DNA of 62,871 nt, counting the filler. It is 6 parts of 6 records of this genome, joined end to end, with 100 filler letters (N's around TTAATTAATTAA, not from the genome) between each part and the next. Parts side by side here need not be neighbours in the genome. Positions count along the whole stretch, not along the records: positions 46,189 to 58,928 come from SRR20825010_4738; 5 more parts are not named here. The stretch is one strand, 5' to 3'. This document shows positions 35,335 through 60,862 of the stretch, piece after piece; position 1 is the stretch's first letter; every line of letters begins with the position of its first letter. A model generated the notes under the pieces. It was not told the origin of the DNA. It saw only the letters and a program-made list of their open reading frames with translations, and made no database searches. The position numbers and the translations under genes were made by a program.

Positions 35335-35432
35335 ATGGAAAACACAGTTAAAATACGAAATGTCGTTCAGGAAACTGAGGATGCAATCACGGTCTATCTG
35401 GACAAGCATCCATCCTTGAATCATTATAGTTC
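35335..35432 (+). CDS. N-terminal fragment of a ferredoxin-reductase-type FAD-binding oxidoreductase (truncated)
   Basis: VKIRNVVQETEDAITVYL resembles the first strands of FNR-like domains. Only about 32 codons are visible; an alternative start lies at 35275. Confidence 0.5.
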
Positions 35433-35532
35433 NNNNNNNNNNNNNNNNNNNNNNNNNNNNNNNNNNNNNNNNNNNNTTAATTAATTAANNNNNNNNNNNN
35501 NNNNNNNNNNNNNNNNNNNNNNNNNNNNNNNN
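35433..35532. other. artificial contig linker
   Basis: N44-TTAATTAATTAA-N44. Confidence 0.98.
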
Positions 35533-35567
35533 GTACTGTCTTGAAGGGTTGCGCTTGCCGGCGGGGT

Positions 35568-44014: not shown

Positions 44015-45562
44015 ATGTTTATCTGCCAGATAGCCGATAGCCCTTTCGGTAAACTCGATGGGAAATTATTTTCGCCGATTGCAAGCGTCAGGTTGCGGGC
44101 ATTGCAGATTGCACCGGAACTGGCCCGGTTAAATTGCCGTGTCAACGTGGTGCCGATAGAAACCGTCAACGACCGCATCTGCGAAGGCCGTTTCTTTGAT
44201 GCAGACATATTCGTGCTGCAGAAAATGCTGCATGATGTCTCTCCATTGCTCGACCAGATCATGGCCGCAAATAAACCGATCGTGGTCGATGTCTGTGATG
44301 ATATCGCGTCTGCTCCGCACCTCCGTGACTTCTATCCCAACCTGCTCAAGCGTGCCGACATTGTGACAGCGTCATCCGAGTCTCTGGCCTCCAGGCTCAA
44401 AGAATTTACCAGCGCGGAAATTATAGTCATTCCCGACAGCGTCGAACTGCAGAAGGGGCATGCGCGCGCCCCCGAAGGCGATCGCCTGGAACTCATCTGG
44501 TTCGGCCGCAGCTCCAACATACATCCTCTGATGGAAGTATTGCCGAGCTTGCAGGATCTTGCTTGGGGGGCAGAACTCGGTTTAACCATTGTTTCGGATC
44601 TCCCGGACAGCCTACTTTCCGACATACGTCAGCGGGCCGGTAAAATCCTGATAAAGAACGAGGAATGGTCACCCGCCACGCTCAGCACCGCGCTGGAGCG
44701 GACCGACATCGCAATTCTGCCGCTGTCGGACTCCGTTTCAGACATGGCCAAGTCATCCAACCGACTGCAAGAGGCTCTTTGGGCAGGGCGCTGCGTGGTT
44801 GCCACTGAAAATCCCAGCAATGCGGTATTTTCCGACAGTGCATTCCTGTCAGACAACATTGCGGAAGGCATTCGCGCCGCCTTGGCAGACAAGGGCGAAA
44901 CGCTACGCCGCATTGAGCTCGGTCAACAAAGCATCGCGTCAGCATCGACACCGGAAGCCCTGGCACCAATCTGGCAAGAGGCTTTCCAAAAAGCCTCCAA
45001 AATCAGACAGGGCAAACCCGCCGGGGCAAGTTTCATGCGGACTCGCCTCAATCTCGGCTGCGGGGACAAACCTATGCCCGGTTATGTCAATGTCGACATA
45101 GCGAGCAGCAGAAAAGACCGATCGCCGGATGTACTTAGTGATTTACGGGATTTGAGCCATTTCAAAGATGGTGTTGCCGATGAGATCATCGCAATCCATG
45201 TGATTGAGCATTTTTATCGCTGGGAAATTGACGCTCTGCTCAAGGAATGGTGCCGCGTCCTTCGTCCCGGCGGCACCCTGACGCTGGAATGCCCAAATAT
45301 CATCACCGCCTGTGAAGAGCTGTTGCGCAACCCGGCACTTGCAAAGAATGCCGACACAGACGGATCCGAGGCCATGTGGCCTCTCTATGGTGATCCATCC
45401 TGGCACGACCCGTTAATGGTTCATCGCTGGGGATATACGCCCGACTCTCTGGAAGAGGTGATGAGCCAAGTCGGTCTGGTCAAGATTCGGCGTGAACATG
45501 CTCAATTCAAGCGCCGTGAGCCACGTGACATGCGCCTGACCGGAGAGAAACCGATCAGCTAG
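44015..45562 (+). CDS. glycosyltransferase-like domain fused to class I SAM methyltransferase
   Basis: N-terminal ASVRLR..VDVCDD..IWFG..SN..KSSNRL (GT-B-like); C-terminal LNLGCG..PGYVNVD, HVIEHF, RVLRPGG.L.LECP, HRWGYT. Confidence 0.78.
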
Positions 45563-46088
45563 TAACAGGCTGTAATTTCTCAACATTTACTTCAACCGGA
45601 TCCGCCACGGACTGCTCCCGCATCTGCTGCCGCCACATCGCCGCATAGATCCCGTCCTGTGACAGCAGGGCGTCATGATTGCCACGTTCGGCAATCTCGC
45701 CCTCGCGCAACACGATGATCTCGTGCGCGTCGACCACGGTCGAGAGCCGGTGGGCGATGACCAGGGTTGTGTAATCCTGGCTAACCTCGGAGAGGCTGGT
45801 CTGGATTGCCTTTTCGGTCTGGCTATCGAGTGCCGATGTCGCTTCGTCGAAGAGGAAAATTTTCGGCTGTTTCAGTAATGTCCGGGCAATCGCCACACGC
45901 TGTTTTTCACCGCCAGAGAGCTTCAGGCCACGCTCGCCAACCGTGCTTTCGTACCCGTCCGGAAGGCTGATGATGAAGTCGTGAATACGGGCCAGGCGGG
46001 CCGCCTCCTCGATCTCCTGCGTACTGGCTCCGGGCCTGCCGTAAGCGATGTTGTAGTAGATCGTGTCGTTGAACAGCACCGTGTCCTG
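45555..46088 (-). CDS. C-terminal NBD of ABCB (Atm1-like) ABC exporter, 5' truncated
   Basis: [52 protein letters not shown]. Confidence 0.92.
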
Positions 46089-46189: not shown

Positions 46190-46840
46190 CAGCAACTGTG
46201 CCCCGCAAGTGACCGCATGTGCATTACCAGGCACTGGCTGGACTTCGGTATTGAGCAAGGTCGACAAGGCAGTGGTGGTTTCAGCCTGCATGGCTACATG
46301 GACCGATACCCCGACTTACAAAATGCATTCGGCCAGGAAAATTATGAAGCCGGCATTGATCATTGGTTCGACAACGGCGAAGACGAAGGCCGCAACACCG
46401 CTGCAACCATTGCAGGCAACGGGCCTGTTTCCGGACCTGCCCGTGTAGGCGGCGGTGGGGGGGGTGCCTGGAGCGACATGGCCACCTGTAAAAACCAGCA
46501 AGTGACAGGCTTCCGGATTGGTGCAGGCCGCCTTGTTGACCGCGTACAGTTCAAATACCCCAGCGGTTGGGCGCCCCGCCAAGGTGGAGGAAATGGCTGG
46601 AATGCGGATGTGAATTTGCCCGACGGCCAATATATTGTGCGGGTTGATTACCGCAACGGCAGCATGGTCGACCAGGTTAGCTTTACCACCAACACCGGTG
46701 TGAAGTACGGCCCCTATGGCGGCGGTGGCGGTAGCCCAGGTACTTACTTGGTAACCCCAGGCCAGAAATTGGGCTGTATGCGCGGTCGGGCAGGTTCATC
46801 CATGGACCGCCTTACATTCACCTCCACAGGGCCACGTTAA
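46190..46840 (+). CDS. repeat protein with C-terminal jacalin-like lectin domain, 5' truncated
   Basis: Frame open from the contig edge. Two HW...G..(Q/E)GR repeats, then GGGGG.AWSD..VDRVQF.Y..VDQVSFTTNTG..YGPYGG.GG..GRAG..MDRL.F (beta-prism I pattern). Confidence 0.8.
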   Translation, partial: QQLCPASDRMCITRHWLDFGIEQGRQGSGGFSLHGYMDRYPDLQNAFGQENYEAGIDHWFDNGEDEGRNTAATIAGNGPVSGPARVGGGGGGAWSDMATCKNQQVTGFRIGAGRLVDRVQFKYPSGWAPRQGGGNGWNADVNLPDGQYIVRVDYRNGSMVDQVSFTTNTGVKYGPYGGGGGSPGTYLVTPGQKLGCMRGRAGSSMDRLTFTSTGPR

Positions 46841-46843
46841 ACC

Positions 46844-48730
46844 ATGAATACATTCATTCAAAAAGCACGCCTTGGCAAATTGGCGGCGGCTGTGGCACTG
46901 GCAGTGTGCATTGAGCAACCCGTACAGGCTGCACAAGAAAATACGGCACAATCTTTCGTGGACATGGTGAAAGAAGTGCCGCTGGTACCCGCCAACATGC
47001 GCGATTCAGAAATGCTGGTGAAGGTCACTGAGGCGGTTAAGTACATCAAACGCCTTGAATTGCCCCAAGCGCACTTTGCCGTAAACGAAGCTTTGCAGCT
47101 GGACCCACGCAATTCGCACTTGCATTTTTTGAATGGTTTTGTGTACCACCTGCAAGCCCGCCAGGGCGACACGCAAAAAGGCGAAATGGCTTTGGAGGGC
47201 TATGAGCAAGCCCTGCGCATCGACCCCAGCAACTGGATTGCGCAAGAATTTCTGGGCCTCGCCCACATGGATTTGAAACAGTTTGACAAAGCCAAACTGG
47301 CCTTCTCGGAAGTGCTGCTGCTAACGCCAGAAAGTGCGGTGTCTATTTATGGTTTGATGGTGGCTTCATACGTAACAGGCGACGCAAAAACCGCCTGCGC
47401 CATGGCCACACAGTTCAGAAAAGTATCCACTGGCTTGTCGCACGGATTCATTCGATCAAGCATTGCAGTGTATGCCTCGTGTGCAGATTTCGAACGTGCC
47501 GGCATTATGCGGGAGGTGTTGAAGGAATTGAACAATGAAGGCCCCGAAGTGGAACGGGCCGACCGCCGTGTTGCGCAGTGGAAGAGCTTCTACAGCAAAC
47601 CTGCTGCATACAGGCAAGGCGGCGAACAACTGGCACAGGCCTTCGACATGCCAGCAGTGCCCTACCCCACGCCACCAGCGGCTGTCGCAACGCCCACAAC
47701 CCCGGAAACTGTTGAAGTTACAACCGCAGTTGCGCCTGTTGCCACGGAAGCCGGCAACGGCCCGCGCATGTTGTTGATTGATGTGGTGTTGTTGTCTACC
47801 CAGGAATTGATTTCAACGTCCAAGGGCGTGAACCTGCTAAACGCACTAACCCTGCAACTGGGCAATGTGGCCGGCAATGTGGCAGCTTATGCACGTGTGA
47901 ACAATTCTACGGTGACCAACGGCGGCGCAGCCGATGTAAGCACCGCCATTACCCGCGCGGTGACCATTCCGGCATTGTCATATTCGCTGAACATAGCCAA
48001 TGCCAACAGTTCACTGAACGAAGTGCTGGCCCGCCCCACACTGGCAGCCATTGAAGGCTTGCCCTCGGAATTTTTCTCGGGAACGAATTTGAGTGCCGGT
48101 TTTGTTTCAACCAGCGTGCAAGGCGGCACTACCGTGGTGCCACTGGAAAAACGCATTGGCATCAAGCTGGCCGTTACACCAGTGTTTTTGCCGCAAGGCC
48201 GAATACAACTGAAAGTTGAAGCGCAGCGCACCAACCTGAACGCCACCACCGAAAACCCGCGCGTGGCCTACCAAATTGAAATAGGCGAAACCACTGCGAA
48301 CGCCAATGTGGTGATGAACCTTGGCGACACACTGGTGTTAAGTGGTTTGAGCGAAAAATCAAGCGCCAGCAACCGCGACGGTGTACCGGGTCTGCAAGAC
48401 GTACCGGGTTTGCAATACCTGTTTTCAAACAAAAGAACCAACGAACTTCAACGCTCGGTGCTGATACTGGTCACCCCCCGTTCGCCTGTACAAATTGCAA
48501 GCGCTGCGCAAAGTGAAAGCGAATCCGTGGACAGCCGCATGAAAATGCTGCGCGACAAGTTTGGATTTTCAAACAGCATGCCGGGCAATATTGAAGCGGT
48601 AATGACTCAGCTTGATTCGAATGACTTCTTCCGCGAATTCAGGCAAGGCGATGTGTCGATGGAGCGTTGGGAACGGATGAGAACGACTGGTGACCGGCTA
48701 AAGGAAGCGCTGGAGTTTTTGTACTACTAG
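46844..48730 (+). CDS. TPR-repeat protein fused to a type II/III secretin core domain
   Basis: Signal peptide, TPRs (EALQLDPRNS, YEQALRIDPSNW), Pro/Thr linker, then EVLARPTL...G....FFSG, GIKLAVTP, LGDTLVLSGL, GVPGLQDVPGLQYLFS, LILVTPR. Confidence 0.85.
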   Translation: MNTFIQKARLGKLAAAVALAVCIEQPVQAAQENTAQSFVDMVKEVPLVPANMRDSEMLVKVTEAVKYIKRLELPQAHFAVNEALQLDPRNSHLHFLNGFVYHLQARQGDTQKGEMALEGYEQALRIDPSNWIAQEFLGLAHMDLKQFDKAKLAFSEVLLLTPESAVSIYGLMVASYVTGDAKTACAMATQFRKVSTGLSHGFIRSSIAVYASCADFERAGIMREVLKELNNEGPEVERADRRVAQWKSFYSKPAAYRQGGEQLAQAFDMPAVPYPTPPAAVATPTTPETVEVTTAVAPVATEAGNGPRMLLIDVVLLSTQELISTSKGVNLLNALTLQLGNVAGNVAAYARVNNSTVTNGGAADVSTAITRAVTIPALSYSLNIANANSSLNEVLARPTLAAIEGLPSEFFSGTNLSAGFVSTSVQGGTTVVPLEKRIGIKLAVTPVFLPQGRIQLKVEAQRTNLNATTENPRVAYQIEIGETTANANVVMNLGDTLVLSGLSEKSSASNRDGVPGLQDVPGLQYLFSNKRTNELQRSVLILVTPRSPVQIASAAQSESESVDSRMKMLRDKFGFSNSMPGNIEAVMTQLDSNDFFREFRQGDVSMERWERMRTTGDRLKEALEFLYY

Positions 48731-49359
48731 AAAAGCCATGGCTCAAGCTTGCGGCGTTTCATTTCGTAGGCTTCTATGCGGTCGATATTACCCAAGGTAA
48801 TGTCGATGTCGTCGAGCCCCTGGATCAAACGTGATTTGTAATACGGATCGATGTCGAAGTGATGCTGAGCATCGTCTTCCAGAATCAATTGCTGTGGCAA
48901 ATCTATGGTCAAATAATAGCCCTCGCGTTCCTGTGTCTTGGCCATGATCTGCTTGAGCAAATCCGCAGGCAGGTGAATCGGCAAAATACCGTTCTTGAAG
49001 CAGTTTGCGTAAAAAATTTCAGCAAAACTTGGGGCAACAATGGCGCGAATACCGTAATCGTCTAACGCCCAAACAGCATGTTCACGGCTGGAACCACAGC
49101 CAAAATTATCTTGCGCAATCAATATTTGCGCACCCTTGTAGCGGGCCTGGTTCAAGCTGAACCCTGGGTTTTTCTGCCGCTCGTGTTCCTCAATACCTGG
49201 ATAACCTTTGTCCAGGTATCGCCATTCATCAAACAGGTAACGGCCAAAACCAGTGCGGTCCACCATCTTGATGTATTGCTTGGGAATAAGCGCATCCGTG
49301 TCAACATTTGAACGGTCCACAGGAACCACCAGGCTGTGCAGTGAAGTAAATGGTTTCAT
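48727..49359 (-). CDS. leuD: LeuD-like (isopropylmalate isomerase family) small subunit
   Basis: NVDTDALIPKQ, NFGCGSSREHAVWAL, SFAEIF..N..KNG.LP, GLDDI..TL. Confidence 0.92.
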   Translation of the reverse strand: MKPFTSLHSLVVPVDRSNVDTDALIPKQYIKMVDRTGFGRYLFDEWRYLDKGYPGIEEHERQKNPGFSLNQARYKGAQILIAQDNFGCGSSREHAVWALDDYGIRAIVAPSFAEIFYANCFKNGILPIHLPADLLKQIMAKTQEREGYYLTIDLPQQLILEDDAQHHFDIDPYYKSRLIQGLDDIDITLGNIDRIEAYEMKRRKLEPWLF

Positions 49360-49372
49360 CGCGCTCCCCGTT

Positions 49373-50801
49373 TCAATGCAAATCCAGAATTGTTACATCC
49401 ACAAAATGGCCATACACTGCGGCAGCAGCAGCCATCGCCGGGCTGACCAAATGGCTTCTGCCACCCGCGCCTTGCCTGCCTTCGAAATTCCTGTTTGAAG
49501 TAGACGCACAACGCTCGCCAGGCAGAAGGTGGTCTTCATTCATGCCCAAGCACATGGAGCAACCGGGCTCGCGCCACTCGAAGCCCGCATCCAGAAACAC
49601 GCGGTGCAAGCCCTCCGCTTCTGCCTGTGCCTTCACAAGGCCCGAACCCGGAACAGCCAAAGCCTGCACAATGCCGGGGTGAACCTTGCGCCCTTTCAAA
49701 ACGCGTGCGGCCAGCCGAAGGTCTTCAATGCGCGAATTCGTACACGAACCAATAAACACTTTGTCCAGCCACAAATCGGTCAACTTCGTGCCCGGCTTAA
49801 TGTCCATGTATTGCAATGCAGCTGCCGAGGCCTGTCGTTTCACAGGGTCACTGATTTCATCCAGCAATGGTACTGATGCGATTACATCGGCCACCATTTC
49901 CGGCGAGGTGCCCCAGGTCACCATGGGGCGCACCGTGGCGGCATCCACGTGCACCACGCGGTCAAACTTCGCGCCGGGGTCTGAATGCAATGTACGCCAA
50001 TAGGTCACTGCCTTCTTCCACATTTCGCCAGCAGGCGCGTAAGGGCGGCCTTTCAAATAATCGATGGTGGTTTCATCCACCGCCACCAAACCGACCCGCG
50101 CACCCGCTTCAATGGCCATGTTGCACAGGGTCATGCGGGCTTCCATACTTAAATTGCGCACCGTACTGCCAGCGAATTCAATTGCAAAACCAGTGCCACC
50201 CGCCGTACCAATTTTTCCGATCAGCGACAACACCAAATCTTTTGCAGTCACCATGCCGGGAAGCTGGCCTTCGATATTGACCAGCATTGCACGCATTTTC
50301 GGCACAGCCAGGCACTGGGTGGCCAACACATACATGTTCCACTTCCGAAGTACCCACACCAAAAGCGAGTGCCGCGAAAGCACCATGCGTGCAGGTGTGC
50401 GAATCACCAGCCACCACCGTCATTCCGGGCAATGTGGCACCCTGCTCCGGGCCGATCACATGGATGATGCCCTGGCGCTTGTCTTTCAAATCGAACAGCG
50501 TAATTCCAAATTCGTCGCAGTTGCGTTCAAGCTGCGCAACCTGTGCGCGGGAAAACGCATCAGCAATGCCAAGCGTGCGACCCACAGTGGGCACATTGTG
50601 ATCTGCGGTGGCCAGTACGGTGCTGGGGCGATGCGGCTTTCGATGTTGCAGCCGCATGCTTTCAAACGCCTGAGGGCTGGTTACTTCGTAAACCAGGTGG
50701 CGGTCCACGTACAACAGGTTGGGGCCACCTTCCTGGCCTTTGGGGGGTGGCATCACCAAGTGGCGATCCCACAGCTTCTCAAGAAGAGTTTTTGCCTGCA
50801 T
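49373..50801 (-). pseudogene. leuC: LeuC-like large subunit split by a frameshift (4-bp duplication at 50328-50335)
   Basis: The 5' frame ends [21 protein letters not shown] and the 3' frame resumes [30 protein letters not shown]. Removing one ACAT restores EVEHVLATQ. Confidence 0.85.
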
Positions 50802-50812
50802 GTTTACACCTG

Positions 50813-51766
50813 CTATGCAATGCGTTGCCTGGGCACGTGCCGCAGGTGGCTCGCGGTTTGGCCACCGGGCAAGCTGGCGATCAAATCAGCCGCCTCAAGC
50901 AATCGGTTCAAATCAATACCACACTGAATGTTTGCACCGTTCAAGGCATACACAAGGTCTTCAGTGGCAGTGTTGCCCGTGGCACCCGGCGCGAAGGGGC
51001 AACCACCCAAACCTGCGGCGGAAGCATCCAGCACAGTGGCGCCATGTTGAATTGCAAACAATGCATTGGCCACGCCCATGCCATACGTGTCGTGCCCATG
51101 AAAAGCCCAGACAATGCCCGACTTGCCATGCACCCGTTGAAGATTCAGAAAATAATCGGCCACCTGCAAAGGCGTTGCCCGCCCGGTGGTGTCGCAAAAG
51201 GCCACCTCCAGGTTGATCCCATGCGTCAACTTGAGCGCCTTGTCCAGCACGGCTGACACCTGCTGCCAACTGACCAGTCCGTCGTAGGGACAATCAAAAC
51301 TGGTACCCAAGTCCAAGCGCATGGTTGGGCGCAATTCACCAGCATGCTCGCGCACGCGTTGTGCAATATTGGCCAAGCCATCCAGCGACGCGTCTACCGA
51401 TTGGCGCACGTTTTTCTGGTTGTGCGCTTCCGAAACCGACACCACGTACACCAGCTCATTCACGCCCGCTTCCAGCGCATTGTCTGCGCCCCGCAAATTG
51501 GGTACCAATGCCGACAAACGCAAACCGGGCACATTGCAGAATTGCTTGAACAACTCTGCTGTGTCGGCCATCTGCGGAATGGCTTTCGGGCTTACAAACG
51601 ATCCAATCTCAATGCGTTTTACACCTGCATGAATCAATGCCTCAATACACCGGGCTTTGTCCGCCGTGGGCAAAGGGTTTGAAATCGATTGAAAGCCATC
51701 ACGTGGCGCTACTTCAACAATTTCAACCTCACTTACTTTTCGAACTACGCTGGATATTTCACTCAT
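50813..51766 (-). CDS. HMG-CoA lyase family enzyme (DRE-TIM)
   Basis: [59 protein letters not shown]. Start set at ATG 51766 with GAGG RBS. Confidence 0.92.
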
Positions 51767-51813
51767 TGAACAACACCTCTTGCACATCACCAAATTCAGC
51801 TGCAGCAACCGAA

Positions 51814-52308
51814 TCAGGTTTTCAATAACTTTTTGACATCCGCAAGCAAATCGACCAGAAACTGCAAACCCAATGCGCCAAACCCTACGGGAAGAATTGC
51901 AAAGGGAATGACCATGGGCGTTCCAAAATCGCTGGACACGCGCTCGCCAAACTCCAAAGCCTGCGACGCCATGATGAAACCGCGCCACACCATGATGCTG
52001 CAAAATAACAAACCAAATGCACTGGTCAGAACGCCAACAACGGCTTTGCCCCTGTCGGAGCAACTTTCAGGAAACAAGTCGATTCGAATGTGGGCTTGGG
52101 CGCGTTGCGCTTCAGCCGCTCCCATCACAGCCATGTACACAATCAGGAATGAATTGATTTCCAGGCTCCAGCTTGTGGGGGCAGAAAACAAATATCGCAT
52201 TACGGTGTCGTAGAAAATGCTGAGCATCATGAACAACAACACCGCAATCGATGTGCCCCGAAGCAAGGCATGCATGCCCCGCCAGGCAGTAAGTGTGAGC
52301 GAGCTCAT
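51814..52308 (-). CDS. dctQ: TRAP transporter small permease
   Basis: VMRYLF..PTSWS.E...HIRID; four TM helices. Confidence 0.9.
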   Translation of the reverse strand: MSSLTLTAWRGMHALLRGTSIAVLLFMMLSIFYDTVMRYLFSAPTSWSLEINSFLIVYMAVMGAAEAQRAQAHIRIDLFPESCSDRGKAVVGVLTSAFGLLFCSIMVWRGFIMASQALEFGERVSSDFGTPMVIPFAILPVGFGALGLQFLVDLLADVKKLLKT

Positions 52309-52325
52309 TGAATCACCTGCTCCCT

Positions 52326-53369
52326 TTAAGCCTTGCCCAGGGCCAGGGCAATGGCGCGGCTACCCAGCTCTTCGCCCACTTGTTTTTTCCACTCGTCCCA
52401 AACAGCCACAGCCGCAGCGTCAAACTTTTTCATGTCATCCGCGCTGGGTTCAATCACTTGCACACCCGCCTGTTGCACCTTGGGCCAGTGCTGCTTGGGG
52501 TACACATTCTGGTTGGCGTTTTTGGCGAAGTTGGCCTCGTACCATGCGCTTGCACTTTCCAGCGCAGCCTTGGCATCGGGGTTTAGTTTGTCCCAACGGT
52601 CGCGCAACATGAACGGGCAAATTGCATAACCGGTGGTCGGAATTTTCAGACAGTAGGCCAGTTGTTCCTGCAGGCTTCGACCCACCACTGTGGAAATGTT
52701 GAATACACCGGCATCCACTGTGCCACGCTGCAAAGCGAGATAGGTTTCAGACGACGGCACACGCACAGCGGAAGACTTGAACGTGGCCAAAGCCTGCGTT
52801 GCTTCAAAGCCCACCACCCGCACTTTCTTGCCTTGCAGGTCTGCCAGCGAACGGATTGGATTGGCCTTGGTACTCCAGATGAATTCTGGTTCAAACAATC
52901 CACCACCCGCGCTTAGCATGTACAGGTTTTCTTTGGCCAACTGGGCATTAATCAATTCAAACAAGGGGCTGCCCTTGGCCAGCCGCTCGGGGTGTGCATA
53001 CAACTCGCCCACAATACCGGGCAAACCCGTGATGCCCAACACAGGCACCGACCGCGTAATGTACGACACAGTGTGAAACATCAAATCAACTGACCGCGAA
53101 CGCAGTGCCGGCAGTTGTTCATCGGCTTTCACCAACTGGCTGGCCGGGTAGTAATCGATCTCTACCTTGCCGCCACTGTTTTTCTTCACCAAGCTGACAA
53201 AACCGTCCGGGCCGTAACTAAGGTCGCCATAAGACGGCGGAATGTAATACACCCCTGTCAGCTTGGTGGCAGCCATTGCCTGCTGGGGCATAAAGCTGCC
53301 TGCACCGGTCACCGCGAGTGCGGCGGCGCCCACTCCAAATTTCAGCGTTTCTCTGCGCTTTGTATCCAT
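52326..53369 (-). CDS. dctP: TRAP transporter substrate-binding protein, Tat signal
   Basis: KRRETLK signal, SGGKV.IDYYPA.QL, DLQGKKVRV, ETYLALQRGTVD. Confidence 0.9.
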   Translation of the reverse strand: MDTKRRETLKFGVGAAALAVTGAGSFMPQQAMAATKLTGVYYIPPSYGDLSYGPDGFVSLVKKNSGGKVEIDYYPASQLVKADEQLPALRSRSVDLMFHTVSYITRSVPVLGITGLPGIVGELYAHPERLAKGSPLFELINAQLAKENLYMLSAGGGLFEPEFIWSTKANPIRSLADLQGKKVRVVGFEATQALATFKSSAVRVPSSETYLALQRGTVDAGVFNISTVVGRSLQEQLAYCLKIPTTGYAICPFMLRDRWDKLNPDAKAALESASAWYEANFAKNANQNVYPKQHWPKVQQAGVQVIEPSADDMKKFDAAAVAVWDEWKKQVGEELGSRAIALALGKA

Positions 53370-53412
53370 GATGTCTCTCTCCTTCCTTGTGGTTATTGTC
53401 AGGTGCCGGGTG

Positions 53413-54705
53413 TCATATCAAACCGGGCAGCCACAAACTAAGCTGCGGGAACAATACAAACACCATCAACACCAAAAATTGCACCATCACGAACGGGATG
53501 GCACTGCGGATGATTTCCTCGATCCGCAAATCCGGGCATACCCCGCGAAGGGCATACAAGTTCAGCCCCACCGGCGGGGTAACTACAGCAATCTCCAAAT
53601 TCAAAACCATAACAATGCCGAACCACAACGGGTCGTAGCCCAGCGCAACAATGACAGGCAACAAAATAGGCGTGGTCACCACGATCAGCGACACCGCATC
53701 CACCAACATACCCAACAAAACCAGCAACAACATGATGCCCAGCAAGATGGCCCAACCAGGCATTTGCGAACCCACCAGCAAATCGGTAAGGGCTTGCGGC
53801 ACACGCACCATATTCAGGTAATCACCGAAAATTTTTGCAGCGCCCATGATGAGAAGAATGGCACCGCTGACACGCGCTGACGAAGCAAGTATGTCAATGA
53901 ATTTTCGCCAGGTCAGCATGCGGAAAATTGCCCCTGCGATGAACAAAGCACCCATTGCACCAATGCCGGCGGCTTCACTGGGGGTGGCCATGCCTGAATA
54001 GATGGAACCCAGCACAATCAACACAAGAAGCGCGGAATGCCAAATGTTGCCAAGGCTTTCAAAGCGTTCGGCCCAAGTGTATTTGGTGTGATCCGGTGGA
54101 GCTTCGTGTGGGTTGGCCAACACGCGCAGGTAAATGTAAAGCGACAGTGCCAGGGCAAGCACAATGCCGGGAATAATGCCGCCGATAAAAAGATCGCCCA
54201 CCGACACACCGGAAACCGCGCCATAAATGATGAAGGGCACACTGGGCGGAATCAACATGGCCAACGCGCCTGCAGTAACCACCGAACCAGCGGCCAGGCG
54301 GCGGCTGTAACCGCGTTCCAGCATTTGCGGCACGGCAATTGAACCAATCGCTGCAACACCGGCAATGCTTACGCCTGACACCGCACCAAACATGGCCGAT
54401 GCACCCACAGAGGAAATGGCAAGGCTTCCGCGCAACCAGTTCAACCACCGCGTGGCGGCAATAAACAGGCTACTGCCCACCGGTGTGGCCGACAGCAAAT
54501 TACCCATCAACACAAACAGTGGCAGCGCAATCAATTCAAAGCTGTTGAGCTGCCCGAACAGGGAAGACGGCGCAAAGAAAAACGCCAGTGAACCTTTGGC
54601 CATGTAAAAGCCAAGCAAGCCAGATAAACCCAAGGATAGAAAAATCGGAAAGCCGATTCCGATCATTACCAGCAACACAACCAACACGACAATGGGTTCA
54701 AACAT
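53413..54705 (-). CDS. dctM: TRAP transporter large permease
   Basis: ALPLFVLMG, LIPPS..FIIYG, ATPSEAA, TPPVGLNLY. Confidence 0.93.
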   Translation of the reverse strand: MFEPIVVLVVLLVMIGIGFPIFLSLGLSGLLGFYMAKGSLAFFFAPSSLFGQLNSFELIALPLFVLMGNLLSATPVGSSLFIAATRWLNWLRGSLAISSVGASAMFGAVSGVSIAGVAAIGSIAVPQMLERGYSRRLAAGSVVTAGALAMLIPPSVPFIIYGAVSGVSVGDLFIGGIIPGIVLALALSLYIYLRVLANPHEAPPDHTKYTWAERFESLGNIWHSALLVLIVLGSIYSGMATPSEAAGIGAMGALFIAGAIFRMLTWRKFIDILASSARVSGAILLIMGAAKIFGDYLNMVRVPQALTDLLVGSQMPGWAILLGIMLLLVLLGMLVDAVSLIVVTTPILLPVIVALGYDPLWFGIVMVLNLEIAVVTPPVGLNLYALRGVCPDLRIEEIIRSAIPFVMVQFLVLMVFVLFPQLSLWLPGLI

Positions 54706-54718
54706 CTCGATGCGCCGT

Positions 54719-55942
54719 TTAAATAACGCCTGCTATGCGCAGGGTTTCAATTTCAGAGGAACTCATGCCGAGCCATTGCTGTAACGCATGATCAGTATTT
54801 GCTCCCAGTGCAGGCCCCGCACTGCGAACCTTGCCTGGCGACCTGGACAAACGCGGAAACACGTTTTGCATGGGAATGATTTGCCCCTGTTCATCTTCAA
54901 CATTCACGATAGACTGGCGGGCGCGGAAGTGTTCGTCGTCCAGCATTTCTGGGGCGCTGTAGATCAAACCGCATGGAACACCCGCAGCCGCGAGCAAATC
55001 CACAATTTGTTTGGCCGGCAGGGTGCGGGTCCAAGTGGCCACAATTGCATCCAGTTCGGCTTGATTGTCGCCACGTGTGCGGTGCGAAAAAAAACGGGGA
55101 TCGTGCGCCAAACCAGCCTGCCCCATGACTTCGCATAAGCGGGAAAACACAGTGTCCTGATTTGCACCAATCACCACATCGCGACCATCGCTTGCAGGGT
55201 ATGCATTCGAAGGGGCAATACCGGGCAGGAAGCTTCCGCTGCGTTCGCGGACTTTGCCAGCCAGCACGTAATCGGGAATGATGCTTTCCATCATGCCAAA
55301 CACCGATTCAAAAATACTGCTGTCCACCACCTGGCCACGGTCAGTTCGTGAACGGTCATGCAACGCCATCATGGTGCCCAAGGCCGCATGCAAACCAGCC
55401 AAGGTATCGCCCAGCGAAATACCCACACGCACCGGCGGCCGGTCAGGGTAGCCCGACACGTAACGCAAACCGCCCATGGCTTCACACACCGAGGCGTACC
55501 CGGCGCGTTGGGAATAAGGGCCGTCTTGCCCGAACCCGGTGACGCGCACCATGACCAGTTTTGGATTGATTTCAGAAAGGGCCTGGTAACCAAGGCCCCA
55601 TTTTTCGAGTGTGCCAGGACGGAAGTTTTCGATCAACACATCGACATGCCTGATCAACTTGCGCAGCACATTCTGGCCCGCTTCCTTGCGAAGATCGAGC
55701 GTCATTGACCGCTTGTTGCGGGCAATCACATTCCACCAGATGGGTTTGCCGCTGGGGTCGCTTTGTCCCCATTGGCGCATGGCATCGCCCTTGCCAGGGG
55801 GTTCAATTTTCAGAACGTCGGCGCCGAAATCTGCCAGCACCTGCCCACAATAGGGGCCTGCAATCAGCTGACCCAGTTCAATGACTTTGATGTCCGAAAG
55901 CGGCAATCCGGACGCTGTGTTGGTGGTTTCCAAGGGCAGCAA
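54719..55942 (-). CDS. class III CoA-transferase (CaiB/BaiF family)
   Basis: ELGQLIAGP..LADFGADV.KIEPP..GD.MR, RNKRS..LDLR, ENFRPGTLEKWGL, GFGQDGPY, catalytic Asp in LGDTLAG. TTG start at 55942 or 55933. Confidence 0.93.
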   Translation of the reverse strand: MLPLETTNTASGLPLSDIKVIELGQLIAGPYCGQVLADFGADVLKIEPPGKGDAMRQWGQSDPSGKPIWWNVIARNKRSMTLDLRKEAGQNVLRKLIRHVDVLIENFRPGTLEKWGLGYQALSEINPKLVMVRVTGFGQDGPYSQRAGYASVCEAMGGLRYVSGYPDRPPVRVGISLGDTLAGLHAALGTMMALHDRSRTDRGQVVDSSIFESVFGMMESIIPDYVLAGKVRERSGSFLPGIAPSNAYPASDGRDVVIGANQDTVFSRLCEVMGQAGLAHDPRFFSHRTRGDNQAELDAIVATWTRTLPAKQIVDLLAAAGVPCGLIYSAPEMLDDEHFRARQSIVNVEDEQGQIIPMQNVFPRLSRSPGKVRSAGPALGANTDHALQQWLGMSSSEIETLRIAGVI

Positions 55943-55973
55943 CCTTTTTATTTATTGAACGATTTTTTGCAAT

Positions 55974-56047
55974 ATCGCATACAATTTTTAAAAAGAAAAC
56001 CCTTAATGCTCATTTTTTAAGCATTTTTTAGGAAAGTTGCATACAAT
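55974..56047. promoter_or_regulatory. two candidate GntR/FadR-type operator sites
   Basis: ATCGCATACAAT (55974-55985) and GTTGCATACAAT (56036-56047), near-palindromes of TTGTATACAA, in the AT-rich gap upstream of the CoA-transferase. Confidence 0.55.
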
Positions 56048-56056
56048 CGTGCCGAT

Positions 56057-56743
56057 TTACCCTTCGTCAGAAAACTGTGTGTGCAGTTCACGCGCGGCCA
56101 GCAAATGGGTACGCATCATGCATTCGGCCCAGGCCGAATTTCGGGCCTCCAGTGCTTGCAGAATCTCTGCATGGTGTTGCATGCTGCGCTGCAAATGTTC
56201 GCGCTTGTACTGCCCCATGTTCCGCCGAATCACTGAATTCGGAACGATGTTGGACAACAGTTGGCTTAACCGCTGATTGCCGCTGGATTCAATCAACATG
56301 CGGTGAAATTCGTGGTTGAGCTTGGACACCTCGTTGCGAACATCCACATCTTGCGGCATATCACGCACCAATGTTTCCATCTGCGTTGCAAGCTGCTTAA
56401 GGTGCTGCAGTTGCACCGCATCAATGTGCTGACAGGCTGCTGCAACGGCAAGGGGTTCCAGCACAAGTCGAATTTCAAATACCTCGCATGCGTCGCGGTG
56501 TGTCCATTCAACCACCCGGGCACCCGCGTGTGGAATTGCCTCTAGCCACCCCTCCGAAATTAATTCTCGCAACGCCTCTCGAACCGGGGTACGGCTTATC
56601 TTCAGTTCCGCAGCCACTGCCGACTCGCGAATGTATTCATGCGGCTGGTACGCACCCTCAAGAATCCGCTCGCGGATCAGCTCGTAAGCATCGGCCGCCG
56701 CTGTTTTACGTTCGCTGGGTGTGGTGTCGTGGATAACCTTCAT
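56057..56743 (-). CDS. GntR family regulator with FCD domain
   Basis: AYELIRERIL.G...E..VA.EL.ISRTPVREAL..L..EG, IRLVLE, NHEFH, HH..I..A. ATG at 56743. Confidence 0.93.
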   Translation of the reverse strand: MKVIHDTTPSERKTAAADAYELIRERILEGAYQPHEYIRESAVAAELKISRTPVREALRELISEGWLEAIPHAGARVVEWTHRDACEVFEIRLVLEPLAVAAACQHIDAVQLQHLKQLATQMETLVRDMPQDVDVRNEVSKLNHEFHRMLIESSGNQRLSQLLSNIVPNSVIRRNMGQYKREHLQRSMQHHAEILQALEARNSAWAECMMRTHLLAARELHTQFSDEG

Positions 56744-56836
56744 TGGCCTGTTGTTCGGAATGGGTGATAAACAGTGCAATCGTGTACCACTGCACTTTCT
56801 TTGGCAAGAACTGCGTACTCCGCAGATTCGGGATTT

Positions 56837-58177
56837 TCACAGCTTCTCTCTGGAACCTGATAAACGCCGGGCTTGAACACGCAAACCTTCAAAAATTGGC
56901 GCAGCAACACTTTGAGGGAAACCTGTGGGCAGGTTTGTGTTGACTGAATTGATCACATCGGGTGTTTTCTTCAAAATGTCCTGTATTGCATCTTCGAAAT
57001 CGAGCCCCATTGCATTGCGCTTGGCCACTACATTCCAATGGCGGCGCTGAATGCTCTGCATGCGGTAATGAGCATTCTTGGATCGCAACGCCATGGCCAT
57101 TTTCACCTTCTGCCATTGAAACTGATTTGCGCCTTTTCCAATGACAGGCCAAGCCGACAATACATCGTACAACGGGGTCAGTGAAAACTGCCCACCCGGC
57201 AACAGGTGGATGCTGAAGTTCTTGGCATGACCATCGGGCGCAGCCAACATCCAGAACAAAAGCTGTGCGCTTAAAAAAGTATGTCGATCTTGTTCTGCAT
57301 TCTCGCTGCCACGCAGTTTACCAAGAATTTGATCAATACCTGGGCCACCTTTCTCCTCGTATTTCCGGGCCGATGGGACACCGAAAACCTGGCAAAAGTC
57401 TTCTTGCGGCAAACGCGCAATCCAGTTGCCCGTGGTCCATTTGCGATCGAAACGTTCAACGACCAGAACCTTGTGACGACCAAACCAGGCAATCTCGCAA
57501 TTCGCAACCGGCAAGCCATACGCGCGAAGAATATGCGCACACAACCACTCGTTCTCGACCGATGTTGAAAAGTCTGCGCGCGATGCACCCACCTCCCCCA
57601 TGGGCAGCTTCAGTATGTGGGTTGTCGGTGTGGCCCCCAAGGGCATGTGCCAACGCCCATCAAGGCGCAGCAACGCTGTTTTTTCCTGCGCACCGGCAAG
57701 CGATATTCTTAGCTCGTCTTCTTGTGGTGCACCAAAGCTGCCTTGCGCAACAGTTGTATCCAGAAGCGCCTCAATTTCAACTTCAGTAAGGGGCCGGCTT
57801 CGAACTTTCCTCACGTTTGGCTGCGGGCTACCTGCAGGCAGCAATTGCACTGCACCCACACAATCACGCCCTACTTTCTCCAGCAGATCAAACGCGTCTG
57901 TTGACGCTGCGCCATAGCGACTTGCCACCCGGCTACGAATGTCCAGGCTATCGGGCAGCAAGTTCTCAAAATAGGCGCTTACATTGGGGCCAGATTCGCC
58001 ACGTATACCGACAGTAAAAGGCAAAGACAATGAAATGGGACGACCCGCACGGTTGCCGAGCCAGGCTGCGTCGTAGATAAACTGTTGCACGCCTGCAGCC
58101 GTGATGCGCCATTGCCCCACAGGCTCAGCATTCATCCACACATCCAGGGCACGGGTTTTTGATGGACGGCCTGCCAT
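56837..58177 (-). CDS. hipA: HipA family toxin kinase
   Basis: YFENLLPD..IR..VGRDCVGA, P-loop ISLAGAQEK, PTTHILK, VERFDR, QEDFCQ, DGHAKNFS, PLYDV. Its ATG overlaps the hipB stop (TAATG). Confidence 0.96.
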   Translation of the reverse strand: MAGRPSKTRALDVWMNAEPVGQWRITAAGVQQFIYDAAWLGNRAGRPISLSLPFTVGIRGESGPNVSAYFENLLPDSLDIRSRVASRYGAASTDAFDLLEKVGRDCVGAVQLLPAGSPQPNVRKVRSRPLTEVEIEALLDTTVAQGSFGAPQEDELRISLAGAQEKTALLRLDGRWHMPLGATPTTHILKLPMGEVGASRADFSTSVENEWLCAHILRAYGLPVANCEIAWFGRHKVLVVERFDRKWTTGNWIARLPQEDFCQVFGVPSARKYEEKGGPGIDQILGKLRGSENAEQDRHTFLSAQLLFWMLAAPDGHAKNFSIHLLPGGQFSLTPLYDVLSAWPVIGKGANQFQWQKVKMAMALRSKNAHYRMQSIQRRHWNVVAKRNAMGLDFEDAIQDILKKTPDVINSVNTNLPTGFPQSVAAPIFEGLRVQARRLSGSREKL

Positions 58178-58437
58178 TACCACTCGCTCGCGGAGTTGGG
58201 GAATTTTTTGCTGCCTGCCGTGGGCTTTGCTTCTACAGTGAGCGTGGCATTCAACGCCATCAATACAGTGAGTATTTGATCGAGCGTGACGGTTTCCGGA
58301 TGATTTTCAATGCGGGAAATGCGTTCTTGCGACAAACCAATTTTCATGCCCAGTGCGGCTTGCGACAACCCTTGCTGTGCCCGCATGTGCTTTAGGAAAG
58401 GGCTAAGTTGCCCTGAAGTGGTGATACTGGTTTTCAT
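58177..58437 (-). CDS. hipB: HipB-like XRE HTH antitoxin
   Basis: LK..R...GLSQAALG..IGLSQERISRIE..P..VTLDQI; coupled to hipA. Confidence 0.92.
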   Translation of the reverse strand: MKTSITTSGQLSPFLKHMRAQQGLSQAALGMKIGLSQERISRIENHPETVTLDQILTVLMALNATLTVEAKPTAGSKKFPNSASEW

Positions 58438-58458
58438 GATTGCACCTAGCCAATAGTT

Positions 58459-58530
58459 TATGCTGCTTAGAGAATAAATTAATTATATGCCTTTAAACAA
58501 ATAAATAACATATATTCTTTATTGAGCATA
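58459..58530. promoter_or_regulatory. three HipB-type operators at 27-bp period
   Basis: TATGC-N8-GAATA (58459), TATGC-N8-AAATA (58486), TATTC-N8-GCATA (58513); compare E. coli TATCC-N8-GGATA. Confidence 0.75.
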
Positions 58531-58630
58531 ATTAGGCCACCCAGGGTGATGGGCTGAACATCCCTCGATTTGTTGAATTGCAAGGCCTGCGAAATACTTG
58601 CAGCTTCAGATGCAAACGACGGGAAATACA

Positions 58631-58928: not shown

Positions 58929-59028
58929 NNNNNNNNNNNNNNNNNNNNNNNNNNNNNNNNNNNNNNNNNNNNTTAATTAATTAANNNNNNNNNNNNNNNN
59001 NNNNNNNNNNNNNNNNNNNNNNNNNNNN
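58929..59028. other. artificial contig linker
   Basis: N44-TTAATTAATTAA-N44. Confidence 0.98.
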
Positions 59029-60144
59029 CTGGCTGCCGTCCATGGCGATCTGCCAGGTGCGGTGGCGGATCGCGGGATTGGAGTAACGCCTGAACAGCGC
59101 GTCAGCATAGGCCTCCAGATCGACCCCTTCCGGCGGCGCGAAGGAGGGCATGATCTCCTGCCGCCACAGCCGCTTGACGAAGCCGGCGAAAACCGGGTCC
59201 GCCACGGTCTCGGCAATGGTTTCGTGGCCGGCCAGGTAACCGAGATAGGCGAGCGAGGAGTGCGTGCCGTTGAGCATCCTGAGCTTCATGTTTTCGTAGG
59301 GCGTGACATCCTGAACCATCTCGGCGCCGGCGGCGGCGAGATCCGGGCGGGCGTCAGTGCCATAGGCCTCGACGAAATCATCCTCGACGACCCATTGTCG
59401 GAACGGCTCGCACATCACCGGCGCTTCATCGCGGTAGCCGGTCTTCTGCGCCAGCCGCTCGATATCCTCGGGCTTCGTCGCCGGCGTGATCCGGTCGACC
59501 ATCGTCGCCGGAAACCGGCCCTCGACCGCGATCCAGTCGGCAAGCGAGGGATCGATCCTGCCGGCGAATTCCAGCACGGCGCGGCGGACCAGCCTGCCGT
59601 TCTCCGGAAGATTGTCGCAGGTCAGCACGGTGAAAGGCGGTAGCCCCGCATCGCGCCGCCGTTGCAGCGCACGAACCAGGAAGCCGGGAGCCGATCGGGG
59701 CAGCGGATTGTCCAGATCGTGCACGATGTCGGGATGCTCGAGGTTCAGCCTTCCGGTGGCCGGATCATGGCAGTAGCCCTTTTCCGTCACCGTCAGCGTC
59801 ACGATACGGATCGCCGGATCGGACATCCAGGCCAGCACCGCTTCCGGGTTTTCAGGCGCCACGAGAACGTCCTGGACGATCTCGACCTTGCGGAAGGTTT
59901 CACCCCCGTCGGCATTCTGCGTCACGGCTGTGTAGACGAAGTCCTGCGGCGCAAGCCTGTCCCGTGTCGACGGGCTTTGCAGGCTGACGCCGAGGATGCC
60001 CCAGTCGCCGCCGGACAACCTGACCGCGTCCTCGACATAGATCGCCCCGAAGGCCCGGAAAAAGGCGCCCAGCCCGAGATGCACGATCCCCGGCCCCGGT
60101 CTTACGGCATCCGAGCGGCGCAGTCTTTGCTCGTCAGCGCGCAA
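59029..60144 (-). CDS. uxuB: mannitol dehydrogenase family protein (D-mannonate oxidoreductase-like), 3' truncated
   Basis: GIVHLGLGAF.RA, TVTEKGY, CDNLPENG, MVDRITP, KLRMLNGTHS, QIAMDGSQ. Probable TTG start at 60144 after GGAGG. Confidence 0.88.
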
Positions 60145-60862
60145 GCCAGCCTCCGTCCACATTGAGGATGGCGCCATGAATGTATTTCGCCGCCGGCGAG
60201 GCCAGGAACACCGCCGTCTCGCCGATATCGTCGGGCTCGCCCCAGCGCCCGGCCGGAATCCGCTCGATGATCGCCCTGTTGCGCGCCTCGTCCCTGATCA
60301 GCGCTTCGGTGTTGTTGGTGGCAATATAGCCTGGCGCAATCGCATTCACATTGATGCCCTTGGCCGCCCATTCATTGGCGAGCAGTTTCGTGATCCCCGC
60401 AACGCCGTGCTTGGAAGCCGTGTAGGAGGCAACCCGGATGCCGCCCTGCAGCGACAGAAGCGAGGCAATGTTGACGATCGCGCCAGTCCCCTGGCGGTCG
60501 AACACCGCGCGCCCGAACGCCTGGCAGGTGAAGAACACCGCCTTCAGGTTCACGTCCAGCACATCGTCCCAGTCACTTTCGCTGAAATCGACGGCCGCAT
60601 TGCGGCGGATGGTCCCTGCGTTGTTGACCAGGATATCGATTTGATCATTCGCGAACACGTCACGCGCGGCCATCGGATCGGACAAGTCGAGAATGATCTC
60701 GCGGGCTTCTGCAATCTGGCTCACGGTCTCGGCGCAGGATTGGCGTCCCGCACAGATGACGCTCGCCCCCGCCCGGCCCATCGCCAGCGCGATGGCCTGG
60801 CCGATGCCGGTGTTGGCGCCGGTCACCAGCGCCGTCTTGCCAGCCAGTGAAAATGGGTTCAC
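60134..60862 (-). CDS. kduD: 2-dehydro-3-deoxy-D-gluconate 5-dehydrogenase (SDR)
   Basis: TGANTGIG, NNAGTIRR, ASLLS.QGGIRV.SYTASK, VDGGWLAR. GTG start overlaps the kduI stop. Confidence 0.95.
   Translation of the reverse strand: MNPFSLAGKTALVTGANTGIGQAIALAMGRAGASVICAGRQSCAETVSQIAEAREIILDLSDPMAARDVFANDQIDILVNNAGTIRRNAAVDFSESDWDDVLDVNLKAVFFTCQAFGRAVFDRQGTGAIVNIASLLSLQGGIRVASYTASKHGVAGITKLLANEWAAKGINVNAIAPGYIATNNTEALIRDEARNRAIIERIPAGRWGEPDDIGETAVFLASPAAKYIHGAILNVDGGWLAR

Follow-up and report, generated by a model that had tools for sequence, protein, structure and literature searches.

A conserved operon joining a TRAP transporter, a class III CoA-transferase, an HMG-CoA-lyase-type enzyme and LeuCD: a possible route for the catabolism of citraconate and related branched C4-dicarboxylates

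The stretch of DNA that we analysed (62,871 nucleotides, referred to below as the window) contains eight genes, all on the minus strand between positions 48727 and 56779, which code for a GntR/FadR-type regulator, a class III coenzyme A (CoA)-transferase, the three components of a tripartite ATP-independent periplasmic (TRAP) transporter (DctM, DctP and DctQ), an acyl-CoA lyase of the 3-hydroxy-3-methylglutaryl-CoA (HMG-CoA) lyase family, and the two subunits of a bacterial-type LeuCD. Comparison with related loci supports the conclusion that the eight form a single unit, conserved and under selection, which is equipped with a regulator and a transporter of its own. We propose, tentatively and with real reservations, that the unit serves, when induced by its substrate, the catabolism of a small branched C4-dicarboxylate, with the C5 acids citraconate (methylmaleate), (R)-citramalate and 3-methylmalate as the likeliest set of substrates.

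Intact orthologous operons were sought, as an earlier description of this DNA made from its letters alone (the sequence-only reading) had advised, and they were found on two metagenome contigs, L142 and L143, which came out of a scan with LeuD. Both contain the same eight genes in identical order, with leuC as a single open reading frame (ORF) of 476 and 477 amino acids, respectively. The proteins encoded by L142 are 92–99% identical to those of the window, and its DNA is 89–90% identical and collinear over window positions 46211–56831. L143 is more distant: its proteins are 64–87% identical to those of the window, and its LeuC is exactly the sequence P0156 of our LeuC set. The gntR gene occupies the same position in both contigs (95–97% identity in L142, 68% in L143), dctM is 99% identical in L142, 87% in L143 and 78–81% in operons from Halomonadaceae, leuD is 92% identical in L142 and 64% in L143, and dctQ is conserved in L142, in L143 and in the Halomonadaceae operons. 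The ratios of non-synonymous to synonymous substitution rates (dN/dS), calculated against L142, lie between 0.02 and 0.12 across all eight genes, that of gntR being 0.037: every gene of the operon is under purifying selection. On L143, the operon is flanked by a LysR-type gene and a DUF3750 gene on one side and by FolD and LacI-type genes on the other, whereas the window and L142 share a secretin gene and a jacalin-domain gene as flanks. Since the flanks differ, the unit runs from gntR through leuD, and this arrangement of genes exceeds chance.

All eight assignments of the sequence-only reading hold in profile searches (Table 1), and curated NCBIfam cut-offs are passed by DctM, DctP, the lyase and LeuD. 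The genes are separated, in the order from gntR to leuD, by 114, 13, 43, 17, 50, 11 and 13 bp, and the stop codon of leuD overlaps a convergent secretin gene. The large permease, the small permease and the binding protein of a TRAP transporter are encoded together; the match of DctQ to its family is weak but the gene is conserved. The best solved relative of DctP scores only 64 bits and the named ones bind lactate, sialic acid or ketoacid; these relatives are too distant for the ligand to be deduced from similarity. The transferase matches several class III families of NCBIfam with E-values from 1e-70 to 1e-86, among them succinate-glutarate CoA-transferase (2e-86) and succinyl-CoA:mesaconate CoA-transferase (8e-71), and it misses every equivalog cut-off. 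Its matches of solved structure are the CaiB/BaiF family protein 4ed9 (253 bits) and the succinate-hydroxymethylglutarate CoA-transferase SUGCT (9br6, 200 bits). The lyase, whose gene is thus found together with that of a class III CoA-transferase, matches HMG-CoA lyases of solved structure (2ftp, 203 bits; 2cw6, 195 bits); its residues R21, D22, H222, H224 and C255 are invariant among 16 aligned relatives, and so are the RDGFQ and HGHD blocks.

The absence of leuA and leuB, another point of the sequence-only reading, is borne out: the operon has neither gene, a Pfam scan of 30 other ORFs of the window (smaller ORFs were not covered) shows no LeuA or LeuB domain, no leuA or leuB gene is present in the scanned flanks of L142 and L143, and the operon lacks the linkage that characterizes the leucine operon leuABCD. 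Nor do the eight genes include any liu-type gene of leucine catabolism, or any member of the itaconyl-CoA hydratase or CitE-type lyase families. The DNA of the operon gave no plasmid match.

In the window itself, leuC is split into two frames, a point that adds to the earlier description. The frame is broken by a tandem ATGTATGT at positions 50328–50335 of the minus strand, immediately after the residues SEVEHV, the duplicated unit being the 4 bp ATGT. The two halves score 220.9 and 482.5 bits on TIGR00170 (703 bits together, for a cut-off of 560.25), each half alone falling below the cut-off owing to the split of the gene. The GDSHT block and the cysteine-bearing blocks GSCTNSR and GCSMCLG, which we take to be the iron–sulfur cluster and active-site motifs, are all present across the two halves. 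When Logan contigs from four runs of four different studies were aligned over window positions 48727–52308, all four runs gave a contig that lacks exactly four letters at 50328. Contigs without the four bases account for 8.55 of a summed depth of 8.55 in run X1, 12.2 of 12.2 in X2, 4.6 of 4.6 in X3 and 52.6 of 139.7 in X4; the remaining contig depth of X4 is identical to the window at 50328. It may be that intact and frameshifted alleles of leuC coexist in X4, or that X4 is related to the source of the window. An intact LeuC of 474 amino acids, P0121, is 96% identical to that of the window, and the dN/dS of the two parts of leuC against L142 (0.044 and 0.056) does not point to decay. Either a very young mutation or an error of assembly accounts for the frameshift.

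The relatives of the lyase show which hydratases accompany it elsewhere. Outside L142 and L143 the nearest ones (65–72% identical) belong to Halomonadaceae, Marinobacter and Oceanospirillaceae. A search of reference genome contigs gave 599 confirmed relatives, of which the best 80 were kept; what follows about lyase loci concerns these best 80 of 599. The top loci contain gntR, the transferase, dctMPQ and the lyase, the best matches being 56–68% identical. No LeuCD-type operon was found among these closest reference matches, which have either a fused hydratase or none. The nearest orthologous operons, from Halomonadaceae, Marinobacter and Fulvimarina, have a fused hydratase: in L001, L004 and L006 (Fulvimarina), a fused aconitase-family gene of 647 amino acids lies between dctQ and the lyase gene and replaces leuCD. 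The fused protein scores 851 bits on NF005558 (cut-off 612), and its best solved relative is mitochondrial aconitase (274 bits). Among 81 sampled genomes of Halomonadaceae, 13 contain the lyase: 8 of these have the fused 647-aa gene between dctQ and the lyase gene, 4 have the TRAP transporter, the transferase and the lyase but no hydratase match, and in 1 the lyase is the only one of these genes. Of 401 genomes sampled from the order, six are carriers of the lyase, and none of the six has a LeuCD-type operon; the only carrier that is new, L195, has the fused gene.

An aconitase-family hydratase is present at 17 of the 80 lyase loci. Ten have a bacterial-type LeuCD beside the lyase and the transferase (L014, L018, L022, L038, L044, L045, L047, L055, L071 and L080), three have the fused enzyme, and four have a type-2 LeuCD-like pair near the lyase (L025, L033, L049 and L078). 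The transferase is matched at 56 of the 80 loci (tblastn, E ≤1e-10, 27–71% identity), in many of which it directly adjoins the lyase. In the lyase tree, the hydratase-linked lyases do not form one clade, so gene context yields no simple subfamily rule. That the lyase and the transferase recurrently have hydratase partners, drawn from different members of the aconitase superfamily according to the lineage, is strong evidence that the leuCD genes of the window belong to the pathway, of which such a hydratase thus looks like a genuine step.

Several of these loci have features of their own. In sphingomonads (L014, positions 4747–12613; L022, positions 5164–11351), a transferase–lyase–LeuC–LeuD block is accompanied by a cytochrome P450, a GFO/IDH/MocA oxidoreductase, and SnoaL-like and glyoxalase-type proteins, and sits under LuxR/LysR-type regulators. 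In the Halomonas olivaria record (L003, 5935–7219), the dctM orthologue is broken into three pieces and further genes of the operon look shortened, which could reflect poor assembly or decay. In Acuticoccus (L007), three ORFs of 327, 183 and 503 amino acids lie between the transferase and the lyase (5997–8929), in the place that the TRAP genes take at other loci; judging by size, they may code for a tripartite tricarboxylate-type transporter. The lyase gene of L007 is followed by a gene for a Cache/PAS methyl-accepting chemotaxis protein (10086–12086), a chemoreceptor that may sense this same substrate.

Regarding the origin of the LeuCD, the idea that it has been repurposed is strengthened: it is of the canonical bacterial type and yet stands without leuA or leuB, and in all five sphingomonad genomes searched the lyase-linked LeuC (518–746 bits) coexists with another, higher-scoring LeuC (761–786 bits). 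A single LeuC (744–770 bits) was found in two genomes of Halomonadaceae and in one other gammaproteobacterial genome; the former two have the fused hydratase in the operon, and the third has no hydratase by the lyase. In the LeuC tree, the sequence of the window forms a clade with P0121, P0122, P0123 and P0156 (support 0.993), in which the operon context is known for the window, L142 (whose LeuC is P0121-like) and L143. This clade is nested in a group of 31 leaves (support 0.947) with names from Burkholderia, Ralstonia, Cupriavidus and Paraburkholderia. The lyase-linked LeuCs of L014, L018 and L022, on the one hand, and of L038, L045, L047, L055 and L080, on the other, make two further separate clades, and three separate clades mean that LeuCD was recruited to the module at least three times. 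In 288 of 301 Burkholderiales genomes (a tally that includes three flagged as unpublished), most of which give a single match, the best-matching LeuC is 64–69% identical to P0121; P0174 and P0147 are about 74% identical to it.

The LeuD of the operon keeps the insertion typical of beta- and gammaproteobacterial LeuDs, and its substrate loop reads IPKQYIKM instead of IPKQFLKS; since the loop is near-canonical, the ordinary substrates of LeuCD, 2-alkylmaleates, are expected. The other differences are modest (Y29, I30, Q83, V96 and E114); V96 is common to one other lyase-linked clade and absent from L014, L018 and L022. As only such modest differences are seen, we do not read a specificity switch in LeuD. 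Judging from these comparisons, the LeuCD of the operon is a recent offshoot of ordinary biosynthetic LeuCD, and its substrate range is probably the ordinary one. We also considered whether leuCD might be a mere biosynthetic locus that happens to lie next to the other genes; we reject this in view of the gaps of 11–13 bp, the absence of leuB, the same gene order at 64–87% identity with different flanks, and the replacement of leuCD by a fused hydratase in sister operons.

What the sequences show directly is gene content, linkage, conservation and selection; the mechanism that we propose, in which every catalytic step is deduced from protein family and gene context, would proceed as follows. 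The TRAP transporter DctPQM would import the acid. LeuCD would hydrate an alkylmaleate, or isomerise a 3-alkylmalate, to a 2-alkylmalate, the C4 carboxyl of which would be loaded with CoA by the class III CoA-transferase, probably from succinyl-CoA or acetyl-CoA. The HMG-CoA-lyase-type enzyme would then split the 2-alkylmalyl-CoA into acetyl-CoA and a 2-oxoacid, which would be pyruvate for the C5 set. The net effect would be the CimA/LeuA reaction reversed through the CoA ester. The GntR protein would probably repress the operon at ATTGYATRCAAT sites until an effector binds. In the genome of the window, the LeuC step would be knocked out by the very recent 4-bp duplication. By the priority rules, the products of LeuCD, (R)-citramalate or (2S)-2-isopropylmalate, should match (S)-HMG-CoA spatially, so that a lyase of the HMG-CoA lyase type rather than of the CitE type is expected as the partner.

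We place the C5 acids first because their cleavage products, pyruvate and acetyl-CoA, need no further genes, and because LeuCD hydrates citraconate in the CimA pathway. Another reason is that (R)-citramalate and citraconate are left unused by itaconate clusters, according to the accessible text of PMC9875883. The sequence-only reading had inferred the same sequence of uptake, hydration, CoA activation and cleavage, starting from citraconate or an alkylmaleate. The conserved, selected unit and the recurrence of hydratase, transferase and lyase speak for it, and among the readings considered this chemistry has the best support, but the data do not separate citraconate from the other substrates: citraconate/citramalate, other alkylmalates or alkylmaleates, maleate/D-malate and 3-hydroxy-3-methylglutarate (HMG) are all candidates at present. 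The (R)-citramalate transferase and (R)-citramalyl-CoA lyase activities and the leuC-type maleate hydratase to which it appealed are on record: the accessible text of the review PMC8307300 lists succinyl-CoA:(R)-citramalate CoA-transferase (EC 2.8.3.20) and (R)-citramalyl-CoA lyase (EC 4.1.3.46), and reports a leuC-encoded enzyme with maleate hydratase activity.

A number of observations weigh against the proposed reading. The nearest solved relatives of the lyase are true HMG-CoA lyases, those of the transferase include the succinate-hydroxymethylglutarate CoA-transferase, and the nearest named ones of DctP are, with low scores, lactate- and ketoacid-binding proteins. The fused enzyme of the closest operons would be named aconitate hydratase by NCBIfam; the shared substrate could thus be something else, or the LeuCD-type and the fused-type operons could differ in substrate. 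The four Halomonadaceae operons without a hydratase imply that the core of the pathway may act directly on a hydroxy-acid, and the sphingomonad module, judging from the genes that surround it, may complete the degradation of some larger branched molecule. Last, the LeuC of the window resembles LeuCs named from Burkholderia and Ralstonia (about 74% identity) roughly as much as its clade-mate P0156 (71%).

It may be that the same three-step chemistry serves another substituent, which we regard as unlikely, although it deserves attention. The substrate would then be 2- or 3-isopropylmalate or ethylmalate, leaked from the leucine and isoleucine pathways and converted to acetyl-CoA and 2-oxoisovalerate or 2-oxobutyrate, or else maleate or D-malate, converted to acetyl-CoA and glyoxylate. 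LeuC and LeuD do score as true isopropylmalate isomerase subunits, the loop of LeuD departs from that of biosynthetic LeuDs only by F-to-Y and L-to-I, and the P450, oxidoreductase, SnoaL-like and glyoxalase-type neighbours in sphingomonads suggest larger branched substrates there; however, our data give no preference for a large substituent over methyl, and nothing in the literature examined documents natural sources from which free isopropylmalate would be available for growth. D-Malate normally undergoes oxidation by a LeuB-like dehydrogenase, for which the operon contains no gene. For maleate and malate there are, on the contrary, the leuC-encoded maleate hydratase and the fact that EC 2.8.3.20 is listed for both (R)-malate and (R)-citramalate, again in the accessible text of PMC8307300.

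The transferase and the lyase might also degrade imported HMG, or another 3-hydroxy-dicarboxylate, to acetoacetate and acetyl-CoA, the hydratase being accessory with a separate or minor role. The lyase passes the cut-off of the NCBIfam HMG-CoA lyase subfamily (287 versus 246 bits) and has HMG-CoA lyases as its best solved relatives, the transferase scores 200 bits against the human-type succinate-hydroxymethylglutarate CoA-transferase, and 4 of 13 Halomonadaceae operons do without a hydratase. Nevertheless, we find this explanation quite unlikely: in the window operon an aconitase-family hydratase is conserved and tightly linked (gaps of 11–13 bp), in 8 of 13 Halomonadaceae operons its place is taken by another enzyme of that superfamily, and independent recruitment is seen in at least three clades of LeuC, whereas aconitase-family enzymes act on malate-type 2-hydroxy acids and are not known to act on HMG; moreover, the operon has no gene for the activation of acetoacetate. 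A tricarboxylate (an aconitate isomer, homocitrate/homoaconitate or a methylcitrate-type acid), processed via a citrate-like tertiary alcohol to acetyl-CoA and oxaloacetate or 2-oxoglutarate, would agree with the aconitase-like hydratase of the closest operons, whose best solved relative is mitochondrial aconitase. It seems improbable, since the window operon uses a canonical LeuCD, the known substrates of which bear hydrophobic substituents or none, and a route of this sort would be superfluous in aerobes for using citrate or aconitate. The loop that follows STDDIMPAG in the fused protein reads ARVLPIW, conserved in 10 loci, with no arginine at what we assume to be the position of the homoaconitase YLRT arginine, a by-eye alignment that makes this a weak argument. 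The synthetic direction, i.e. a synthase-free elongation of 2-oxoacids in which acetyl-CoA and a 2-oxoacid give alkylmalyl-CoA, then alkylmalate and 3-alkylmalate, is hardly credible in our opinion: the operon contains no dehydrogenase, an uptake transporter of its own and a GntR-type regulator are what a catabolic operon typically has, and the patchy occurrence of the lyase (13 of 81 Halomonadaceae, 6 of the 401 genomes sampled from the order) fits an accessory nutrient trait, even though both the lyase and the transferase can in principle work in reverse, as stated in the accessible text of PMC8307300.

Returning to the proposed catabolism of C5 acids, we compared the operon with four known systems. 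The (R)-citramalyl-CoA lyase of Chloroflexus is reported to belong to the HMG-CoA lyase family; no NCBIfam model for the Chloroflexus enzymes is among the profile matches of the operon. The EC 2.8.3.20/EC 4.1.3.46 pair of Chloroflexus aurantiacus is the closest known, with a class III transferase and a lyase that converts a 2-alkylmalyl-CoA into acetyl-CoA and pyruvate, as far as the accessible sources describe it; unlike this pair, which was described in the context of carbon fixation, that of the window belongs to a proteobacterial uptake operon that also comprises TRAP genes, gntR and genes for a hydratase of the aconitase family. The itaconate system Ict-Ich-Ccl (PA0878–PA0883 in Pseudomonas aeruginosa) is closest in logic: it degrades a branched C5 dicarboxylate by the cleavage of citramalyl-CoA into acetyl-CoA and pyruvate, which is what we propose here, and it also has a linked transporter (PA0884–0886). 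But in the itaconate route activation comes first and is followed by hydration of the CoA ester and by a CitE-type, (S)-specific lyase, while the operon of the window would hydrate the free acid with an iron–sulfur enzyme and use an HMG-CoA-lyase-type lyase; it is not a member of the Ict-Ich-Ccl group. With biosynthetic LeuCD (LeuABCD, or CimA-LeuCD-LeuB), the operon shares an equivalog-level family, a position nested among beta- and gammaproteobacterial LeuCs, the near-canonical LeuD loop and the insertion; it differs by the absence of leuA and leuB, by the junction to a transporter, a transferase and a lyase, and by its interchange with the fused aconitase-like enzyme in orthologous operons. 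Likewise, HMG-CoA lyase (EC 4.1.3.4; LiuE, human HMGCL) and the SUGCT-type transferase belong to the same two protein families, and the catalytic blocks of the lyase are conserved, but the operon of the window has no liu genes nearby and is linked to an aconitase-family hydratase.

Our full-text literature searches, which did not extend to supplementary files, returned no description of an operon of this kind, and no genes for the breakdown of citraconate or (R)-citramalate are named in the searchable literature. The genes that break down itaconate, mesaconate and methylsuccinate are known, and the Pseudomonas itaconate cluster confers no growth on (R)-citramalate or citraconate, according to the accessible text of PMC9875883.

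The AT-rich spacer between gntR and the transferase gene contains the putative regulatory sites. The motif ATTGYATRCAAT occurs twice in this spacer in the window, twice in L142 and three times in L143, and both L006, with two copies, and L007 have a variant, ATTGGATACAAT, ahead of the transferase gene. We infer that the GntR protein binds at the ATTGYATRCAAT sites, which are candidate operators. The promoter scan returned a single sigma-70-like site, on the wrong strand, versus 4.7 expected; terminator-like sites are more numerous than expected (21 versus 12.5), and none is convincing after leuD.

Table 1. Genes and putative regulatory motifs of the operon (positions are those of the window).
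Feature	Positions	Strand	Assignment and remarks
gntR	56057–56779	minus	GntR/FadR-type regulator; heads the unit; probable ATG at 56743; best NCBIfam GntR-family E-value 4e-31
CoA-transferase gene	54719–55942	minus	CaiB/BaiF class III CoA-transferase; NF052585, E 2e-86, residues 11–388
dctM	53413–54705	minus	TRAP large permease; TIGR00786, 375 bits (cut-off 268)
dctP	52326–53369	minus	TRAP periplasmic solute-binding protein; NF037995, 85.6 bits (cut-off 50); twin-arginine leader
dctQ	51814–52308	minus	TRAP small permease; YiaM, 28.9 bits (weak); size and position fit
Lyase gene	50813–51763	minus	HMG-CoA-lyase-family (DRE-TIM) acyl-CoA lyase; PRK05692, 287.2 bits (cut-off 246)
leuC	49373–50801	minus	Bacterial-type large subunit; TIGR00170; two frames, 50178–50801 and 49373–50407
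leuD	48727–49359	minus	Bacterial-type small subunit; TIGR00171, 241.9 bits (cut-off 116.25); ends the unit
ATTGTATGCAA	56037–56047	minus	Operator-like half-palindrome in the AT-rich gntR–transferase spacer
ATTGTATGCGAT	55974–55985	minus	Second operator-like motif, about 30–40 bp upstream of the transferase start

Around the operon, the collinearity with L142 ends at window position 46211, and a jacalin-domain ORF of 207 amino acids (46217–46840) is the C-terminal remnant of an ORF of 914 amino acids which is whole in L142 (10476–13220). Directly upstream of gntR, the region 56832–58537 contains a hipBA-type toxin–antitoxin pair (HipA, 56837–58183; helix-turn-helix protein, 58177–58437), which is missing from the otherwise collinear L142; there was thus an insertion in the window or a deletion in L142.

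The window as a whole (1–62871) is a compositional mosaic, with joins near 19–20 kb, 36 kb, 46.2 kb and 58.9 kb at which genes are truncated. The first 18 kb have a GC content of about 60–63% and code for a Dxs that is 97% identical to that of Nisaea denitrificans; the GC content is 42–47% from 19 to 36 kb, 52–55% in the operon block (46.2–58.9 kb), whose relatives are labelled Gammaproteobacteria or Marinobacterium, and 64% from 59 to 62.9 kb. The RND pump at 20028 begins at profile position 201, an ABC ATPase is present as a fragment (45555–46079), and a mannitol-dehydrogenase C domain is cut (58981–60177). Either the assembly is chimeric or concatenated, or this is an island region that has undergone heavy rearrangement, and because of this mosaic the taxonomy of the host of the operon is not readable from the ends of the window. 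Elsewhere, positions 19000–36000 contain two RND/HlyD (Cus/Czc-like) efflux sets, an outer-membrane factor and two heavy-metal P-type ATPases. The same block codes for a GH26 glycosidase (29771–31408) that ends in a sorting tail for type IX secretion, a feature characteristic of Bacteroidota and out of place next to alphaproteobacterial genes. Two large pentapeptide-repeat proteins are encoded side by side nearer the start of the window (13421–14677 and 15245–16543; 323 and 242 bits on PF00805).

It is possible, and we say so with caution, that with this operon a bacterial route for citraconate and (R)-citramalate is defined genetically for the first time: an R-specific counterpart of itaconate degradation that would hydrate the free acid, with interchangeable aconitase-superfamily hydratases (a recruited LeuCD or a fused aconitase-like enzyme) that would supply the CoA-transferase and the HMG-CoA-lyase-type enzyme, in marine and saline Gamma- and Alphaproteobacteria. 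If so, it would fill a gap in the genes for the breakdown of these two acids, and the carriers may scavenge intermediates of the branched-chain pathways that other organisms release. The isomeric acids citraconate, mesaconate and itaconate have immunomodulatory and antibacterial effects and also serve as building blocks of polymers. The operon would also be a case of a biosynthetic iron–sulfur isomerase recruited to catabolism and swapped with another aconitase-family enzyme, and annotators should then avoid naming such genes leuC, leuD, HMG-CoA lyase or aconitate hydratase. Culturable carriers of this system exist in Modicisalibacter, Halomonas, Marinobacter and Fulvimarina.

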